Virus record (IMG/VR): IMGVR_UViG_3300008448_000012
Span: 1-64,000 of that record
Origin: a virus
Direction: 5' to 3' (one strand)
DNA: 64,000 bases
The notes below the pieces were generated by a model. The model worked only from the letters and a program-made list of their open reading frames with translations, made no database searches and had not been told where the DNA came from. Each line of letters starts with the position of its first letter. Within the stretch, counting starts at the first letter, position 1. Below, in pieces: positions 4,238 to 48,568 of the stretch. The translations under genes and the position numbers were made by a program.

Positions 4238-4570
4238 TTATTTGTTTAGTTCATCCAAGTCTTCATCCAATCTTTCAAGAAACGTTTCCTCACCATCATC
4301 TCCTGACAATAGCCAATCTATTCTTTGTGCATACACTTGTGCTATTCTTAAAATGTTGACAGCATCCTTGAACTTAGCAATAACCTCATCAGGATATTTA
4401 TGGTGGTATAAGTCTTCTGGGTATTTCTCATACCAATCAGTACCATGCCATGATTCTTCTCTAAGTTCTCTATCTGTTTTCTTTCTACCATTTGTTTCTA
4501 TCTCTCTTTCAATGGATTCAGCTATATTGCCTATAGCGTATTGCTGATAATCAAATCTTCCACCCGACAA
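4238..4570 (-). CDS. hypothetical phage protein (MSGGRFDY... type), TTG start
   Basis: ORF 4238..4636 trimmed to TTG TCG GGT GGA, preceded by AAGGAGGT-TACT; the N-terminus matches a stub at 5313. Confidence 0.75.
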   Translation of the reverse strand: MSGGRFDYQQYAIGNIAESIEREIETNGRKKTDRELREESWHGTDWYEKYPEDLYHHKYPDEVIAKFKDAVNILRIAQVYAQRIDWLLSGDDGEETFLERLDEDLDELNK

Positions 4571-4583
4571 AGTAACCTCCTTT

Positions 4584-5279
4584 TTATTTTTTATGTTTTT
4601 TAATAGTTCTTGATATAGCTGATTGACAAACTCCAAAAATTCTAGCTATATCATTTTGACTGATTCCAGACTCGTGCATAGTTATTATTTTGCATATATC
4701 TGAACTACATAACTTTACATATACTGGTTGTCTTTTTTGATTCACTCCTGCATCTACATAAGAATATGATTTACCATTTAATACATTACCTATTGTCTTC
4801 CTGTCAACACCATACATTTTACTTATTTCTTTTTGAGTCAACCTACTTTCTGCTAATAGTTTTTTAATTTCAATAACCTGTTCTATTGTTAACTTTTTTA
4901 GAGAAGACTCATAGTAGCCTCGTTTTTCTCCCTTATACTTGTTTTTATTTGCTTTTGAAATATTCATTTTAGTTTCTTCTGACATATACGAATAGCTTTC
5001 TCCAGCTTTAGGTAACCTGCAATTTAATCCAACCTTTGAATCAAGAACATTGAACTTTAGACCATAAAACAACTCTCTTTCAAGTAACACATCTTCAGAA
5101 CATTCTTCAATAATTTCTAACACATGCGCACTCCATGTATATTTCTTTATAGAATTATACAGCTTTGTTTGGCTTTTACAATTCAATCCCTTATACGAAC
5201 AAACTCTGTTAGCTATATCATTAGATGAACCTATATACACCTTTCCACTAGGTGAAGTTATTTTGTAAATACCCATCAT
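4584..5279 (-). CDS. free-standing GIY-YIG homing endonuclease with NUMOD3-like and C-terminal HTH repeats
   Basis: GIYKITSPSGKVYIGSS, ERELFY, MSEETKMNISKANK, two HTH-like repeats. Confidence 0.92.
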   Translation of the reverse strand: MMGIYKITSPSGKVYIGSSNDIANRVCSYKGLNCKSQTKLYNSIKKYTWSAHVLEIIEECSEDVLLERELFYGLKFNVLDSKVGLNCRLPKAGESYSYMSEETKMNISKANKNKYKGEKRGYYESSLKKLTIEQVIEIKKLLAESRLTQKEISKMYGVDRKTIGNVLNGKSYSYVDAGVNQKRQPVYVKLCSSDICKIITMHESGISQNDIARIFGVCQSAISRTIKKHKK

Positions 5280-5313
5280 TTTGCAAATATACGTCAAACA
5301 TTCCTCCTGACAT
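5248..5313 (-). pseudogene. orphaned 5' stub (MSGGMFD...) of the gene now at 4238..4570
   Basis: ATG TCA GGA GGA ATG TTT GAC versus TTG TCG GGT GGA AGA TTT GAT; stops after 21 codons inside the HEG. Confidence 0.7.
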
Positions 5314-42337: not shown

Positions 42338-45259
42338 ATGAAAAAAGACATTCTGAAAATTGCTGGTGTTAAGTCCGAGAAGGAATTCTACAAGAAGTTC
42401 CCTACCAAAGAAGCTTTTATGGCTAAACATGGTGGTGCTTTTAAGAAAGCTGCCATGGGTGCTTCTATGGTTAAGAAACAATTGACACAGCTCACTGATT
42501 TTGCAAATCCTCCACAAGCTCAAGTAGGACGCAATATAAATGGTATACCTTCTCAATATCAACTTCAAACATATAATCCTTATTCTGGAAATGTACTAAA
42601 TTCTGCTACATACAATAACCAAACTGGAATGTTTAATTCTAACACAGGTCAGGTAAGTATGGCTGATACGCAAGCTGCTGGATTTAAGAATAGTGGTAAC
42701 AAAACACTTGATAGAACTATAAAAGATTTGAGTGCTAGTGATATACAATCAGGTGTTCAAATGACATCAACCATAGGATCAAATGTGCAAAAAGTAAGTA
42801 ATGCAATTAAACAGAAAAAAGAAGCAAAAAGATTAAATGCTTTAGCTCCTGTTATATTGCAAGCTTCTGGAACAAGACCAGAAGAAACAAGACGTAGGTA
42901 TGTTCGTCCTGAAGATAATCTTGTAAATCCTGGTGAACTAGCTCCTTCTTATGGAACAGGGACAAACTTCCTTGCCAAAGATGGTATGCAAATAGGAGGC
43001 AATCTTACAGAGATTCAAAACATGTACAATCCTGGAGACATATATTCTGATATGGGATATGAACCTCTTAGTGAAAGTGACGTAGTTAAGCAATATAAAA
43101 AAGGTGGATTTATTCCAAAAGCTCAATTAGGTATAATTCAAGAAGCAGTTAATACAGCAGGAGATTTAACTGCTGGGCTTATAAGTATAGGTACCAATAA
43201 ACTTAATAAGCAAAGTGAACAGATTCTTGGTCAAGCTGGTTTTCAATCAGGAATGCAGGACTTACAACAGAATCAATATTCAGGATTTATGGAAGATGGT
43301 GGATGGGTTAGTCATGATTGGCAACCACAGGTTATTGCTAAGTTTGGTGATTATGATCTGAAAGATCTTCTGAAACCTGACCCAACAATGGACACTCTTA
43401 GAACTGGTGGTAGCATCAGGAATAACTATATGGGCTATGATGAGAATATGTCAATGATGCAAATGGGAGGAGAACTCGAAACCCATTGGGGTGGTGAGGC
43501 TGAACCTATTTCATACAATCCATATCTTCCAGATGGTGGAGAAACTGTAATGTTCAGAGGACAATCTCATGAAGAAGCTGATGGTAAAGGAAGAACAGGA
43601 ATAGGTATTACATTTGGTGATAACCCTGTAGAAGTGGAAAGAGGTGAACCTGCTGTAAAGCTTCAGGATGGTGGTAGTGATGAAAGTCTTGTTGTGTTTG
43701 GTGATATGAAGATTCCTTCTTATGGAGTTAGTGAGATTGGTGATGATAAAGCTAAAAGTATGAAATTCAAGCATTACGGTAAACATTTGAGCAAGTTGGA
43801 AGATAAGCAAAATAAAACTATCAATAAATCACTTAGTCTGATTGACTCTATAGATAGCGATAGTCCTTTTGATCTTCTCAAGCTTAACTCAGGAAAAATG
43901 TCATTGGTTGGTGCAGACATGAAGCTTAAGGATTTGGCTATGAAGAAACAAACATTGGCAAATGTTCAGAATGCAATTCTTGATACAGCAGATGAATATG
44001 GTTTGGAAAGTGCTGAGCTTGCTAAGGGTAATATTAAACAAGCCAAGCTTGGTGCTAAATTGAAAACTGCACAATTTGGATTTCAATCAAACACTCCTCC
44101 TTGGCAATCTCCAGAACCTCTTCCTTTCTTTAGAGGTCCAGGTTATGGTATCACTCCTTCAGTTGATGTGAAATCAGCCTCTGCAAAAACAGCTACAAAA
44201 AGCTCAAGTACTAAATCAAGCAGTTCTACAAAAGGTGGTTCTAAAAGTTCAACTAAAGAAGTTTCAACTAAATCACCTGAACCAGTATCTTTAATGCGTA
44301 ACCCTTCAGATAATGCGTATGAGGCATTTACTAAAAGATGGGATGCATATGCACAACCAAAAGCACCATTGATAACAGTACCTTACAAATCAGCTGAAGC
44401 AGAAAAAAGATCTACAGAAGCAATTAAGAAAGAAGGTGAAAAGAAATCAGATAAGTCAACTAGTTCTTCAGAAACTGCTAAGAAAGATAAATTTGATTTG
44501 AATAATCTTTTGGATATGGCTGCTCCATATCTGAGACATATGATTAAGAACCCTTTTGATCCTACTCAAATTATGGCAGAAGCTGCTTCTTTTGCACTGC
44601 TTGATAAAAATGGTGTACAAGCACAAACATTCCAACCACTATTGGAACAAATAACAAGCATATCATTACAAGATCAATTGAATGAAATCCAAGCTGATGT
44701 AAATGCTTCAAAAAGAATGGTTGGAAACAATCCTGCTGCTCTTGCTATGATTGATGCTCAAGCTGCTGCTGCCAAGAATAAAGTTCTGGGAGAGCAATTC
44801 AGAACAAATCAAATGCTTCAAGCAGAGACCAGAAGAAGGAATCTTGGATTGTTGAATGATGCTACATTGAAGAATATGGCTATTCTTGATCAACAATATG
44901 TTAGGGGATCTGAATCTGAGTCTAGAAGAAAAGCACAAGCAATTACAGCACTTAGTTCTATTGCTGATAAGATTGCAAAGAATAAGGCTGAGACACTCCA
45001 AGCCAATGTTATGGCAAATATGTATCCACAATACACATTTGGTCCTAAGGGAAGAATCTATAACACTGGATTGACAAGGTTTAATATTCCTGACGATGTT
45101 GGAGCAGATGAACTTACTGATACTCAGAAAGACCAAATAAGAAAACTGAACGAAAAAATAGTTACTAAATCAGGTACTGGAGAAGTTAAAAGTATTAAAG
45201 AAAAAGAACAGACTAAATCCAGGAATGGTTCTATTGTAAAAGCACTTAAAAACTTCTAA
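42338..45259 (+). CDS. cargo / ejection-like protein with xxxGG repeats
   Basis: 973 aa, GQSHE...G..VEVE.GE segment, about 11 motif repeats. Confidence 0.65.
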   Translation: MKKDILKIAGVKSEKEFYKKFPTKEAFMAKHGGAFKKAAMGASMVKKQLTQLTDFANPPQAQVGRNINGIPSQYQLQTYNPYSGNVLNSATYNNQTGMFNSNTGQVSMADTQAAGFKNSGNKTLDRTIKDLSASDIQSGVQMTSTIGSNVQKVSNAIKQKKEAKRLNALAPVILQASGTRPEETRRRYVRPEDNLVNPGELAPSYGTGTNFLAKDGMQIGGNLTEIQNMYNPGDIYSDMGYEPLSESDVVKQYKKGGFIPKAQLGIIQEAVNTAGDLTAGLISIGTNKLNKQSEQILGQAGFQSGMQDLQQNQYSGFMEDGGWVSHDWQPQVIAKFGDYDLKDLLKPDPTMDTLRTGGSIRNNYMGYDENMSMMQMGGELETHWGGEAEPISYNPYLPDGGETVMFRGQSHEEADGKGRTGIGITFGDNPVEVERGEPAVKLQDGGSDESLVVFGDMKIPSYGVSEIGDDKAKSMKFKHYGKHLSKLEDKQNKTINKSLSLIDSIDSDSPFDLLKLNSGKMSLVGADMKLKDLAMKKQTLANVQNAILDTADEYGLESAELAKGNIKQAKLGAKLKTAQFGFQSNTPPWQSPEPLPFFRGPGYGITPSVDVKSASAKTATKSSSTKSSSSTKGGSKSSTKEVSTKSPEPVSLMRNPSDNAYEAFTKRWDAYAQPKAPLITVPYKSAEAEKRSTEAIKKEGEKKSDKSTSSSETAKKDKFDLNNLLDMAAPYLRHMIKNPFDPTQIMAEAASFALLDKNGVQAQTFQPLLEQITSISLQDQLNEIQADVNASKRMVGNNPAALAMIDAQAAAAKNKVLGEQFRTNQMLQAETRRRNLGLLNDATLKNMAILDQQYVRGSESESRRKAQAITALSSIADKIAKNKAETLQANVMANMYPQYTFGPKGRIYNTGLTRFNIPDDVGADELTDTQKDQIRKLNEKIVTKSGTGEVKSIKEKEQTKSRNGSIVKALKNF

Positions 45260-45300
45260 CTCATTCAGTTATACCAACTTACCAAGTTTCGTTAGGATGT

Positions 45301-45332
45301 CTTGGTTATTATAATATTTTAAATTACATTTG
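45301..45332 (+). promoter_or_regulatory. Bacteroidota sigma-A promoter
   Basis: CTTG-N20-TACATTTG. Confidence 0.65.
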
Positions 45333-45347
45333 CTAACTTAATCTATC

Positions 45348-45965
45348 ATGGCTTCATTTACAGGAATAATTTATCTCACTATTAACCAAATAAACGGAAA
45401 AGTTTATGTTGGACAAACTGGTGTTGATAGTAGTTCCTATATAGGAAGTGGTAAAGCAATGTTAAAAGCTATTAAAAAGTACGGAAAGTCAAACTTCATT
45501 AAAACAATACTTAGAGATAGCATAAAATCTTTAGAAGAATTAAATTTCTGGGAGGATTTTTATATAAGATTATTTGATTCTAGAAATCCAAAAATTGGAT
45601 ATAATATTCGTCCTGGTGGAAAGAATTCTAAATTTAAACACACTCCTGAATCTATTGTAAAAATTAAAAAAAGAAGTAATCAAGAAGATAACAGATTGAG
45701 AATCAGACAAATACAAAAAGTTGCAGCTGATACCAGAAAAGGGACGCATCATTCTAAAGAAGCAAAATTAAGAATAATGTCTACTAAATTTGGGCATGTT
45801 AAAGAAATAGAAATATATAAAAAGGATGGTGAGGTTTTATATACGTGCAATTTTTCAACTGAAGCTTCTGATCTTACTGGAGTAAAAAGAGCAGCAATTG
45901 CCAATAATCTTGCTGGTCTTTCTAAATCCGCAGGAGGATATATTTTTAAATATAAAAACAATTAA
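45348..45965 (+). CDS. free-standing GIY-YIG homing endonuclease (NUMOD3/NUMOD1-like tail)
   Basis: IIYLTINQINGKVYVGQ, YIGSG, E.FYI, GYNI..GG, HTPES, SAGGYIFKY. Confidence 0.92.
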   Translation: MASFTGIIYLTINQINGKVYVGQTGVDSSSYIGSGKAMLKAIKKYGKSNFIKTILRDSIKSLEELNFWEDFYIRLFDSRNPKIGYNIRPGGKNSKFKHTPESIVKIKKRSNQEDNRLRIRQIQKVAADTRKGTHHSKEAKLRIMSTKFGHVKEIEIYKKDGEVLYTCNFSTEASDLTGVKRAAIANNLAGLSKSAGGYIFKYKNN

Positions 45966-45967
45966 CA

Positions 45968-48568
45968 TTGGCAAGCTTTACAGATACCATAATGCAATTT
46001 AACCCCTACGTTCAGCAATTGCCTACAGAGGCAATGGCTCAAGTGGGTATGTATAAACAGCAGAAGTATGAGGAGGGGGTACAAAAAATCCAGTCTGAAA
46101 TCGATAGGGTTGCTGGATTGGATGTTATACGAGATGTTGATAAACAATATCTCCAATCAAAACTTAATGAACTTGGAGGTAAATTAAAAACTGTAGCTGC
46201 TGGTGACTTCTCAAACTTCCAATTGGTCAACTCTGTAGGAGGAATGGCTACGCAGATTGGTAAAGATCAAAATGTTAGAAATGCAGTTTCATCTACAGCT
46301 TGGTATAGAAAGCAGGTTGCTGAAATGGAAAAGGCTATTTCTGAAGGAAAATCTAGTCAATCCAACATTTGGGATTTTAATCAAAGAGCAGATGCTTGGA
46401 AAAACTCAACAGATATCAAACAAGGATTTAGTGGTAGGTATACACCTTACGTAGATGTAAATAAAAAGTTTCTTGATGTATTGAAGACATTAAATCCAAA
46501 TGCCACTCAAGAAGATATTGCTTATGAAATTGATCCTGTCACTGGTAAAGTAGATACTAAGCAGATTGCTGCAGCAATGGCTAGAAAAGGATATGAAGGA
46601 GTTAGTGCTGCAAAAATTGAAAATGCACTGAATGCAACATTGACTCCTGATGATATCAATCAGCTTTCTATAGATGCAAGATATAGGTTTAAAGATTATG
46701 GTGTTCCTGATTTACAAAACTATGCAAAACAACAAGTTAAATCAAGAACAGATAACATAGATACAAAAATTCAAGCTTTAGAAAAGTTTTCAAAGCTAAG
46801 TTCTTCTAGCCCAGAAGATGTAACTACAGCATTACAATCTATACAGGATTTAAAAAACAAGAGAGCAAAAATAGAAAGTGAACTTCCTTCTCAACTTGAA
46901 GCTATTGCAAGAAACCCTGACGGAACAAAGTTCAATATTTATAAAGAAGGATATTTAGATAGTTTTTCAGAAGCATTTTCTTGGGAAAAACAAAAGCTTG
47001 AACTTCTTACAAATCCTGTTCTTGCTGCTGACCATTGGGCAAAAGAATATAAAATAACTCAAGCTAGATTAAATCTTGATGAACGACAGTTTAACTGGAA
47101 ACAGTATGTAGAGGGAGAAGGTCTCAAGATGAGAAGAGAAGAACTTGATTTGGAAGTTGCCAAAACTTATGGAACTGCTGGATTTACAACATATGGAGGT
47201 GAAAGCACTAATGTAAAAAATCCAGTAGTTGCAATGAAGCAAGATGCTAATGCTAAAGATCAAATGGCATTGGATGGAGTTAAACAAATGGCTGTAGGAT
47301 TGTTTGGAAAAGCAACTCCTGAAAATATTGGAGCTATAGAAAGTTCAATTCTTAAATATCAAAATGCAACCACTGATGCTGAAAGAAATGCAATTCCTGT
47401 AGAATGGAGAGAGGTTGCTAATGGTATTATTGAGAACAGAATCAAAGCTAAAAATATAACCAATGCACTTTCTGAATCTGAAAAAAGAGCAATGGCTAAT
47501 CCAGCATTAGCAGGATCTGCTGCTGCAATTGATAATGCTCTTAAATCAAAGAAAGGATTTACTATTACTGTAGGAGGTAAACCTACATATTTTAGCAATA
47601 GAGAAATTCTTGACTATTTAAGCAAAGAAGGACCTAGAGGTATTGCTTCAGGTGGAATTATAACAGGTCCAAACACTGCTGCACAACCAGTAGGAACTCC
47701 TATTGATCCAAGTACACTAAGTCCCAAAGAAAGAATATTGTACGAAGTAGTGAAAAATAATCGTTATGGTTTGGGAAAAGCCACTGCTGCACAGGGTGCT
47801 ATAAACGGTATACTTAATCAATATACAGATCTTGTAAATCAAGGAAAGAGTTTTAAAAATTCAATGGACTCATATGTTTCTCAAGATATGCTCCAAAGAT
47901 CTGGTAAATATATTCCTTCAATTAGTTCTATTTTTGTAGGAGGAGATAAGGAAGATAACCTTGCAAGAAATAGAATGGAATCAATTGTTGGTACAGTGCT
48001 TAGCAGATATGCAAAAGATAAGGGAGGAGCAGAAGGACTGGATGTATCTGGTGCAGCAGCACTTCTTGCTGCAGAAGGTAAAAATGCAATTCAATATCAA
48101 AAAGTTTTGCAAGGGGACAAGGCATATGTAGTTATGAAGAAAGGGAATGATGAATTCATGATTCCTGTAACACCTATGGAAGCTGCACAACTTCCAAAAA
48201 TGAAAGGTGAGCCATCTCCATTGGAAGTTGATATCACTACAACACAACAGTTGAATGGTGGTACAACCAATGCTAGCGGAAATGCTGAAGATTCTTACTT
48301 CCAAAGATTCAATTTTAGTAATGTTAGGAATTTGAATGTTACAGCAGATTTGAAAAGAAATGTTTCCAATCCAGCAATCCAATATATGACTGTTCAATTA
48401 AAAACACCGTCTGGTTGGAAGTCTCTACCACTTACAGACTATCCAATGGATGTAAGTAAAGCAGCTACATTGGTTGGTACGTTTACAGATAACGATATAG
48501 TTCAGTATTTTTTGAATAGTAAGAATGTTCCACAGTCTTGGAAAGACGAAATTAAAACTCTTCGATAA
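45968..48568 (+). CDS. large virion ejection-like protein, TTG start
   Basis: 866-aa ORF upstream of the RNA polymerase. Confidence 0.8.
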   Translation: MASFTDTIMQFNPYVQQLPTEAMAQVGMYKQQKYEEGVQKIQSEIDRVAGLDVIRDVDKQYLQSKLNELGGKLKTVAAGDFSNFQLVNSVGGMATQIGKDQNVRNAVSSTAWYRKQVAEMEKAISEGKSSQSNIWDFNQRADAWKNSTDIKQGFSGRYTPYVDVNKKFLDVLKTLNPNATQEDIAYEIDPVTGKVDTKQIAAAMARKGYEGVSAAKIENALNATLTPDDINQLSIDARYRFKDYGVPDLQNYAKQQVKSRTDNIDTKIQALEKFSKLSSSSPEDVTTALQSIQDLKNKRAKIESELPSQLEAIARNPDGTKFNIYKEGYLDSFSEAFSWEKQKLELLTNPVLAADHWAKEYKITQARLNLDERQFNWKQYVEGEGLKMRREELDLEVAKTYGTAGFTTYGGESTNVKNPVVAMKQDANAKDQMALDGVKQMAVGLFGKATPENIGAIESSILKYQNATTDAERNAIPVEWREVANGIIENRIKAKNITNALSESEKRAMANPALAGSAAAIDNALKSKKGFTITVGGKPTYFSNREILDYLSKEGPRGIASGGIITGPNTAAQPVGTPIDPSTLSPKERILYEVVKNNRYGLGKATAAQGAINGILNQYTDLVNQGKSFKNSMDSYVSQDMLQRSGKYIPSISSIFVGGDKEDNLARNRMESIVGTVLSRYAKDKGGAEGLDVSGAAALLAAEGKNAIQYQKVLQGDKAYVVMKKGNDEFMIPVTPMEAAQLPKMKGEPSPLEVDITTTQQLNGGTTNASGNAEDSYFQRFNFSNVRNLNVTADLKRNVSNPAIQYMTVQLKTPSGWKSLPLTDYPMDVSKAATLVGTFTDNDIVQYFLNSKNVPQSWKDEIKTLR

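Follow-up and report, generated by a model that had tools for sequence, protein, structure and literature searches.

In the stretch of viral DNA considered here, referred to below as the window (64,000 nucleotides, positions 1–64,000 of IMG/VR record IMGVR_UViG_3300008448_000012; coordinates are those of the window unless marked as genome), an open reading frame (ORF) of 205 codons occupies the very beginning of a conserved virion gene, and the start of that gene is present twice, once as the first codons of the inserted frame and once again just behind its stop. The interpretation that we favour, with a probability of about three in four, is that the inserted frame is a free-standing homing endonuclease gene (HEG) of the Seg/I-TevI-like GIY-YIG type, lodged, without the help of an intron or an intein, within the 5′ end of the gene that it targets.

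A gene start present twice

All parts of this arrangement lie on the plus strand. The HEG (45348–45965, with the stop codon TAA at 45963–45965) opens with ATG GCT TCA TTT ACA G (45348–45363), a copy of the start of the virion gene that now provides codons 1–5 of the HEG, and it stands immediately behind a conserved promoter-like leader (45260–45347) that in HEG-less relatives lies directly before the ATG of the virion gene. A spacer of two bases, CA (45966–45967), separates the HEG stop from the restart codon of the second copy, TTG GCA AGC TTT ACA G (45968–45983), which restores the conserved N-terminus MASFTD and begins the gene for an 866-residue conserved protein of the virion block, function unknown (45968–48568), itself directly upstream of a giant ORF of 4059 residues. 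Both copies, together with the changes of the Ser codon from TCA to AGC and of the Ala codon from GCT to GCA, had been picked out in an initial annotation made from the sequence alone, and that description holds.

The two 16-mers encode the same five residues (M-A-S-F-T, 5/5 identical) with 11 of 16 bases in common, the five mismatches falling in the start codon (A/T), the Ala codon (GCT/GCA) and the Ser codon (TCA/AGC). The upstream copy is identical to the native start of two HEG-less loci, L005 and L008, and it equals the first 14 nt of a HEG-less contig in run X1 (here and below, L-numbers denote IMG/VR loci, P-numbers homologue clusters and X-numbers sequencing runs, the window locus itself being WIN). 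The element is placed after the first base of codon 6, and its ORF takes up 618 of the 620 inserted bases. It is in phase with the host gene, one end of which is duplicated as a similar peptide encoded by divergent nucleotides, the combination that marks the mobile ORFs (mORFs) of fungal mitochondria. Close spacing between HEG stop and restart (−4 to +4 nt) is found also in L010, L021, L023, L045, L156 and L158 and at the third HEG of the same genome.

It had been argued from the outset that chance is an unlikely explanation for such a layout, and this is now confirmed from three directions. In a genome-wide control comprising 603 comparisons of adjacent ORFs, at least four of five N-terminal residues were shared only by this pair and by one trio of tandem paralogues; in a permutation test on 11 distinct HEG loci of the phage group, the similarity observed between a HEG and its own downstream gene was not attained once in 5000 permutations; and the pattern recurs in independent metagenomes. 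For these reasons chance can be excluded, and the duplicated-start layout is real. The trio that appeared in the control lies outside the window, at genome 84283–85235, and consists of three small paralogous genes in tandem that share the N-terminus MAT[IV]KK.

The form of the virion gene when no HEG is present can be judged from its relatives. Among the best 119 homologue clusters (the homologues total 2563), 110 start with M[AGS]S[FYW] and position 6 is Asp in 110/110, while in 15 HEG-less IMG/VR loci the conserved leader is followed directly by ATG and MASFTD-like codons, just as the initial annotation had anticipated for homologues lacking a HEG. These comparisons show that the virion gene natively begins with MASFTD. 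A TTG start is seen in three of the five HEG-plus loci as against none of the 15 HEG-less ones, and eight of the 119 clusters (P0005, P0009, P0010, P0011, P0013, P0041, P0055 and P0088) have odd, truncated or non-Met starts, and these may be additional HEG-plus loci, restarting at a codon other than ATG, whose starts were mis-called. The ‘recoding’ of the downstream copy, as the original proposal termed it, need not be purposeful, since the same alternative codons (GCA AGC, GCC AGT and GCA TCG) are present in natural HEG-less alleles.

Conservation around this start is strikingly local. The last 120 nt of the leader are 75–93% identical in HEG-less L003–L009 and in HEG-plus L010; the leader together with the first 300 nt of the gene shows the same range (75–93%) among phages in which the remainder of the gene is about 50% identical or less; and at the protein level residues 1–100 are 65–83% identical between HEG-plus phages, as against 23–31% for the rest. 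Judged by these alignments, the leader and the first 100 codons form a conserved island of the sort typically targeted by homing endonucleases. Within the leader, an AT-rich motif containing TATAAT (45300–45347, corresponding to −48 to −1 in L003–L010) is conserved at a fixed distance before the ATG in all relatives, and it is a candidate phage promoter or leader, in which a promoter function would be plausible. A sigma-70 scan gave no excess of sigma-70-like promoters and did not flag the TATAAT motif on the plus strand, and no terminator-like site was found within 44900–46300. As to the claim that the HEG takes over the promoter and start of its host gene, it does sit directly behind the leader and does use the native ATG; the take-over of promoter activity and of translation is something that we infer.

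The inserted enzyme and its spread

By sequence and predicted fold the inserted ORF is a GIY-YIG homing endonuclease of the Seg/I-TevI-like type. PHROG 314 (‘homing endonuclease’) is matched with E 1.7e-23, and relatives of the ORF carry PF01541 (GIY-YIG), PF19835 (SegE-type) and PF07460 (NUMOD3); an hmmscan with the HEG itself returned no match at E 0.01 or better. An AlphaFold model built from 48 relatives has a pLDDT of 89.8, and its best Foldseek matches in the PDB are 1mk0 and 1ln0, which are structures of the I-TevI catalytic domain (probability 1.0, target TM-scores 0.65–0.75), while the C-terminal part of the model matches the DNA-binding region of I-HmuI (1u3e) and resembles I-HmuI/NUMOD. 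A profile search of PDB sequences with the HEG gave no match to I-TevI, which the fold search did find.

The catalytic domain spans approximately residues 6–91. In the model the first two beta strands (residues 6–13 and 19–24) carry the GIY motif, present as G-I-I-Y at residues 6–9, and the YIG motif, present as Y-V-G at residues 20–22, and residues 1–5 are coil; since strand β1 begins at residue 6, the five captured residues would form an unstructured tail. Among the 48 relatives Y20 and G22 never vary and Y9 is retained in at least 90%; E69 and N86, the candidate counterparts of the catalytic residues E75 and N90 of I-TevI, are likewise invariant, and the segment after the YIG motif follows the Seg-type pattern Y-I-G-S-G ... 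A-I-K-K-Y-G. Five copies of the HEG from different phages, all of them 205 residues long, give dN/dS values of 0.10–0.32, and this, taken together with the constant length, shows the protein to be under purifying selection.

The same HEG occupies the same site in four related metagenomic phages, namely L010 (whose contig is shared with L022 and L044), L021, L045 and L023, giving, with the window locus itself, five HEG-plus against 15 HEG-less loci in IMG/VR. L010 and L021 repeat the design seen in the window, having a MAS[FY]T tail, a stop, two bases and then TTG with an AGC serine codon; L045 has an ATG restart that overlaps the HEG stop, and in L023 the restart is again ATG but the tail is MPDFN. 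Variation among the upstream copies (TCA or AGT; F or Y) is of the kind seen in natural alleles. Among representatives of the HEG clade (at least 51% identity) 55 of 64 begin with MAS, and position 4 in these is F in 49 cases, Y in four and W in two, the same three residues as are found in the target; more distant Seg-like enzymes begin M-[VI]-IYK and have no N-terminal extension. Between phages in which the virion protein is 23–31% identical beyond residue 100 the HEGs are 62–81% identical, a contrast that fits horizontal spread. Searching IMG/VR with a degenerate DNA pattern of the HEG C-terminus yielded no further members of the clade, only other HEGs without the duplication.

HEG-plus and HEG-minus alleles coexist. 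When the contigs of four runs were compared over 44700–46700, contigs that skip the HEG were found in three runs from three studies (X1 joins 45361 to 45989, X4 joins 45326 to 45995 and X5 joins 45339 to 45998), and each of these joins rebuilds the ATG-MASFTD allele directly behind the leader. The flanks of the HEG-minus contig in X1 (30 and 55 nt) are identical to the window, and the depths in that run are 6.6 for the HEG-minus contig, 4.2 for the HEG-plus contig and 13.6 for the upstream piece that they share. Compared with the X1 allele, the downstream copy in the window shows clustered differences (in the start codon, codons 2–3 and codons 5–7) and is identical thereafter.

Other endonucleases beside duplicated gene starts

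The phage is a distant, environmental member of the crAss-like group, and the window corresponds to its structural module, in which terminase, portal and major head protein can be recognised; the best relatives of the terminase are crAss-type phages of Leptolyngbya, Cellulophaga, Flavobacterium and Bacteroides. The genome, which was present in runs from aquatic, freshwater, lagoon and sediment metagenomes, measures 114,470 bp, has a 114-bp terminal repeat and contains four GIY-YIG HEGs.

One of the other three provides the minus-strand companion case on which the initial annotation had relied, and it does exist, although in a different form. What remains of the next gene's native start (MSGGMFD.., 5248–5313) is a relic mini-ORF of 21 codons with its ATG at 5313, out of frame with the HEG; the HEG itself (4584–5279) has its own ATG and encodes an enzyme combining GIY-YIG and helix–turn–helix (HTH) parts (PF01541 with E 6.9e-6, plus HTH families); and behind it come a Shine-Dalgarno-like AAGGAGG, a TTG restart at 4570 and the intact gene MSGGRFDY.. 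(4238–4583). In about 46 distinct loci of this gene family, which encode MSGG.F.Y, the start codon is always ATG except in the HEG-plus locus L075 (TTG) and in L118 (GTG). L075 has a homologous HEG and restarts with TTG, and at the same place its relic has decayed further.

The third HEG lies outside the window (genome 76781–77464) and begins MGIPNRQIG, while two bases past its stop the following gene begins MIPSRQIG. At this locus (genome 76781–77607; also L072) the G of the GIY motif is supplied by captured host codons, and the gene that follows the HEG encodes 46 residues and ends in a poly-Thr tract. The fourth HEG (MRKKGSPGVY.., minus strand, 1–214 and continuing across the genome end) is placed immediately ahead of the DNA polymerase gene, stop and start overlapping in ATGA, and its N-terminus is not duplicated. 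In the record, the 114-bp terminal repeat lies within this ORF, and for that reason the ends of the record may be an assembly cut rather than true termini.

Beyond this genome, two loci of related phages (L156 and L158) show the pattern and five others (L154, L155, L159, L160 and L161) do not show it clearly. Behind the GIY-YIG HEG of L155 (1456–2300) comes a long open frame that lacks a start codon nearby, perhaps part of a gene that the HEG has split. For distant Seg-like HEGs of unrelated phages, the 100 nt around each HEG start were compared in three frames with the first 25 codons of the gene behind it, non-cognate pairs serving as the reference: four of the 40 usable loci (L204, L166, L205 and L234, which lie on contigs of up to 362 kb belonging to large phages) exceed the 99th percentile of the non-cognate pairs. 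In L204 (1126–2416, on the 362-kb phage contig) 24 host codons are fused in frame to a Seg-like HEG, and the host gene restarts at an ATG overlapping the last 11 bases of the HEG, with Arg and Ile codons that differ between the copies. L166, L205 and L234 have instead an out-of-frame, decaying relic upstream and a HEG with its own ATG.

Recurrence in other genomes, on which the initial annotation had made its proposal depend, is found, and so is recurrence in other HEG lineages (L010, L021, L045 and L023, then L156 and L158, then L204, L166, L205 and L234), but the rule that was drawn from the first two cases, namely an ATG copy followed by a recoded TTG copy, fails, as the restart is ATG in L045, L023, L156, L158 and L204 and at the third HEG. 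Similarly, the idea that capture of a start by the HEG is a general device survives as far as the duplication of the 5′ end is concerned, but not as to capture, given the out-of-frame relics in the minus-strand case, L166, L205 and L234. On these comparisons the general feature is duplication of the 5′ end of the target gene around a HEG, with in-frame start capture and TTG restart as frequent variants.

With regard to the immediate surroundings, the gene upstream of the HEG at 45348 is a virion-block gene of 973 codons (42338–45259, plus strand, from the ORF list) whose stop is 88 nt before the HEG start and for which no Pfam or PHROG family was found. A DNA search of INPHARED with 44800–46800 gave no match, and tblastn with the virion protein gave two distant matches only.

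Mechanism, alternatives and precedents

According to the mechanism that we propose, the resident promoter, leader, ATG and first five codons would drive and open the HEG ORF, and the virion gene would be reopened at the TTG behind the HEG stop, with termination-reinitiation (translational coupling) as the most likely means. The element is flanked on either side by conserved target-gene sequence, and because of this an intron-like homing into any HEG-less allele could follow a double-strand break. The HEG-plus genome would be protected from its own enzyme in two ways: the upstream copy would lack the right half of the presumed cleavage site, while the downstream copy has no leader and differs at the start codon, at the Ala and Ser codons and just past the junction. 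As to origin, the arrangement would most likely have arisen by one-sided illegitimate repair of a break, or by co-conversion of the gene start of a donor, as has been proposed for the fungal mitochondrial mobile ORFs. The occurrence of TTG together with AGC in three divergent hosts would fit a restart that moves along with the HEG.

Several observations weigh against this interpretation, or against parts of it, and are best considered together. The HEG scores 17.5 bits against Pfam PF01541, below the gathering cut-off of 22.6, and no conserved Arg equivalent to the catalytic Arg (R27) of I-TevI was identified after the YIG motif. The HEG-minus metagenome contigs are short unitigs that cannot be phased to the same strain, and RNA run X20, with one contig ending at 45352 and next to none of the sampled words, is uninformative on transcription. 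Coupling is not a universal requirement, since the minus-strand case has a Shine-Dalgarno-like site. A sliding-identity comparison revealed no HEG-specific co-conversion tract, the leader and first 300 nt being equally conserved in HEG-plus and HEG-less loci, a result that favours neither copy as the one that travels with the HEG. Finally, L003, which is HEG-less and the closest IMG/VR relative for this gene, naturally has the supposedly recoded codons behind an ATG, from which it follows that the downstream copy could be the resident one.

The spelling in question (L003, 4001–4030) consists of ATG and the same alternative codons as in the downstream copy of the window (GCA AGC ... GAT ACC ATA); it could be a scar allele left after loss of a HEG, or the native spelling of that lineage.

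The last two of these objections also speak for an origin in the opposite sense, which leaves the anatomy unchanged and which we regard as a serious, if distinctly less probable, alternative. A HEG already equipped with a MASF tail would travel as such and insert exactly between leader and start codon, in which case the downstream copy would be the resident start, and the change from ATG to TTG and the codon differences would have come from lineage history or from selection for immunity. Conservation of the MAS tail in 55 of the 64 clade members speaks in its favour, as does the occurrence in L003 of GCA AGC ... GAT ACC behind ATG, together with the lack of any co-conversion signal. It is less easily reconciled with the presence of TTG and AGC in WIN, L010 and L021 alike, in spite of virion genes that are 24–26% identical beyond residue 100, with the fact that the X1 HEG-minus allele, whose flanks are identical, matches the upstream copy and not the downstream one, or with upstream copies that vary in the manner of natural alleles.

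It is improbable, though still worth weighing, that the element is a fixed and immobile fossil, inherited vertically from one ancient insertion, with its protein kept for some other reason or its ORF needed for translation of the virion gene. The site, the length of 205 residues and the MAS tail are indeed constant across a clade that diverges to about 51–55% identity, and here too the failure to find a co-conversion tract would be expected. Such a fossil would not, however, be expected to show HEG-plus and HEG-minus forms side by side in three studies (in X1 with identical flanks), a sporadic distribution (five HEG-plus as against 15 HEG-less IMG/VR loci), a HEG far better conserved than the body of the adjacent protein, or purifying selection at the protein level in excess of what a mere open frame would need.

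A third possibility, that the downstream codons are untranslated leftovers and that translation of the virion protein begins further in, at the ATG at 45992–45994 (MQFNPY, plus strand), seems very unlikely. This is the start chosen by gene callers, the public gene call of this genome (P0003, 858 residues) beginning eight codons late, and TTG is a weak start codon. On the other hand, ASFTD-like residues stand in frame upstream of the internal ATG, unbroken and with synonymous differences, in all five HEG-plus loci, and the Asp that is found at position 6 in every one of the 110 homologues points to a functional N-terminus. L021 has no in-frame ATG before codon 18, which is beyond the conserved FNPY motif, so that there the TTG must be the start. 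The internal ATG of the window is thus probably not the true start.

Removal of the insert at the RNA or protein level, by a group I intron, an intein or ribosome hopping across the shared TTTACAG, can be dismissed almost entirely, as the initial annotation had already leaned towards doing: apart from the 7-nt direct repeat that flanks the insert and the label ‘group I intron endonuclease’ given to some relatives by JGI there is little to recommend it, for no Rfam family matches within 45100–46200 even at E up to 1, an ORF filling 618 of 620 bases leaves no space in which a ribozyme core could fit, the folds computed for both junctions in three genomes do not surpass those of shuffled sequences (z −0.23 to +1.17), the HEG ends in the stop TAA and neither a Hint family nor a Hint fold was found, ACA is followed by GGA rather than by a stop, the gap would be 620 nt as against 50 nt in T4 gene 60, and the 7-nt repeat is not conserved in L045 or L023.

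Turning to precedents, parasitism of genes without intron or intein, put forward in the initial annotation as a general device, has forerunners: the fungal mitochondrial mORFs do much the same in mirror image at gene 3′ ends and are the closest precedent. In the account given in PMC3630166 these elements are inserted in phase at the 3′ ends of genes, bringing a foreign C-terminus that is conserved as peptide but divergent in nucleotides and leaving the native end as a relic; the examples it covers include Allomyces macrogynus atp6 (Paquin, Laforest, Lang 1994, PNAS 91:11807, as cited there) and Glomus atp6, atp9, cox2 and nad3 (Beaudet et al. 2013, PMC3630166). What the two systems share is an endonuclease ORF, without intron or intein, that has entered one end of a conserved gene in phase. 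The displaced end exists in two copies, one of which keeps the gene whole while the other is a relic, and the origin proposed is a transfer, driven by the endonuclease, in which the ORF brought a foreign gene end along. The present case differs in affecting the 5′ end rather than the 3′ end, in phage genomes rather than mitochondria, and through a Seg-like GIY-YIG enzyme; moreover, the endonuclease takes the leader and start of its host, and the host gene re-initiates behind the stop at a TTG or ATG 0–4 nt away. As regards the mORF expectation that the functional copy is foreign and the relic native, the upstream copy matches both the prevalent HEG-less allele and the one in X1, yet L003 natively has the downstream spelling and no discordant tract was detected.

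Among phages, the intronless homing of the T-even Seg and Mob enzymes (SegF, SegG, SegB, MobE; on the subject see PMC3984707 and PMC2790892) offers an evident parallel, since these also combine a GIY-YIG catalytic domain with a NUMOD-like DNA-binding part, are free-standing and sporadic beside a conserved target gene, and are thought to be immune through differences in target sequence. The T4 seg genes occupy intergenic positions, each with a start of its own, and are not known to be fused to the first codons of the target or accompanied by a duplicate of its start, both of which are seen here. In the Aeromonas phage Aeh1, nrdA is split by mobE, giving what have been termed ‘genes in pieces’ (PMC3045599, with a mention in PMC10448857). 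There too the HEG lies inside coding sequence without a splicing element and translation restarts behind it, but where Aeh1 NrdA is assembled from two polypeptides the upstream ‘half’ at the present locus amounts to five duplicated codons and the protein stays in one piece. The T4 mobA and gene 60 cassette (Bonocora et al. 2011, PNAS), which reportedly relies on a 50-nt translational bypass, is similar to the extent that the HEG travels with sequence that alters its target site while the host gene is still expressed; the present locus has no bypass features. Among the papers searched, none was found to describe this 5′ layout in phages.

Several practical consequences follow. Gene callers misplace the start of the host gene at such loci, and the N-termini of the HEGs carry host-derived residues. 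The loci offer candidate natural pairs of nuclease and target site, the target being expected around the start codon of a conserved virion gene, and the window locus could serve as a model for termination-reinitiation in Bacteroidota-type translation. A more speculative notion, which on balance we consider unlikely, is that the arrangement acts as an addiction device as well as a safe harbour. If that were true, an essential virion gene would lie behind the HEG stop with a weak TTG and no ribosome-binding site, its translation would need ribosomes that have just finished the HEG, and the phage would not survive any frameshift or nonsense mutation in the HEG, with the result that the HEG would be shielded from the decay that normally ends the homing cycle. 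On the same speculative reading, since both homology arms fall in conserved coding sequence, the element could in addition home in the manner of an intron among very divergent phages, which would make it a third solution beside introns and inteins.

Homing endonucleases are generally thought to need an intron or intein if they are to live inside conserved genes, and otherwise to remain between genes. This locus and its relatives represent a third arrangement, placed at the 5′ ends of genes, which is simple, recurrent and testable.

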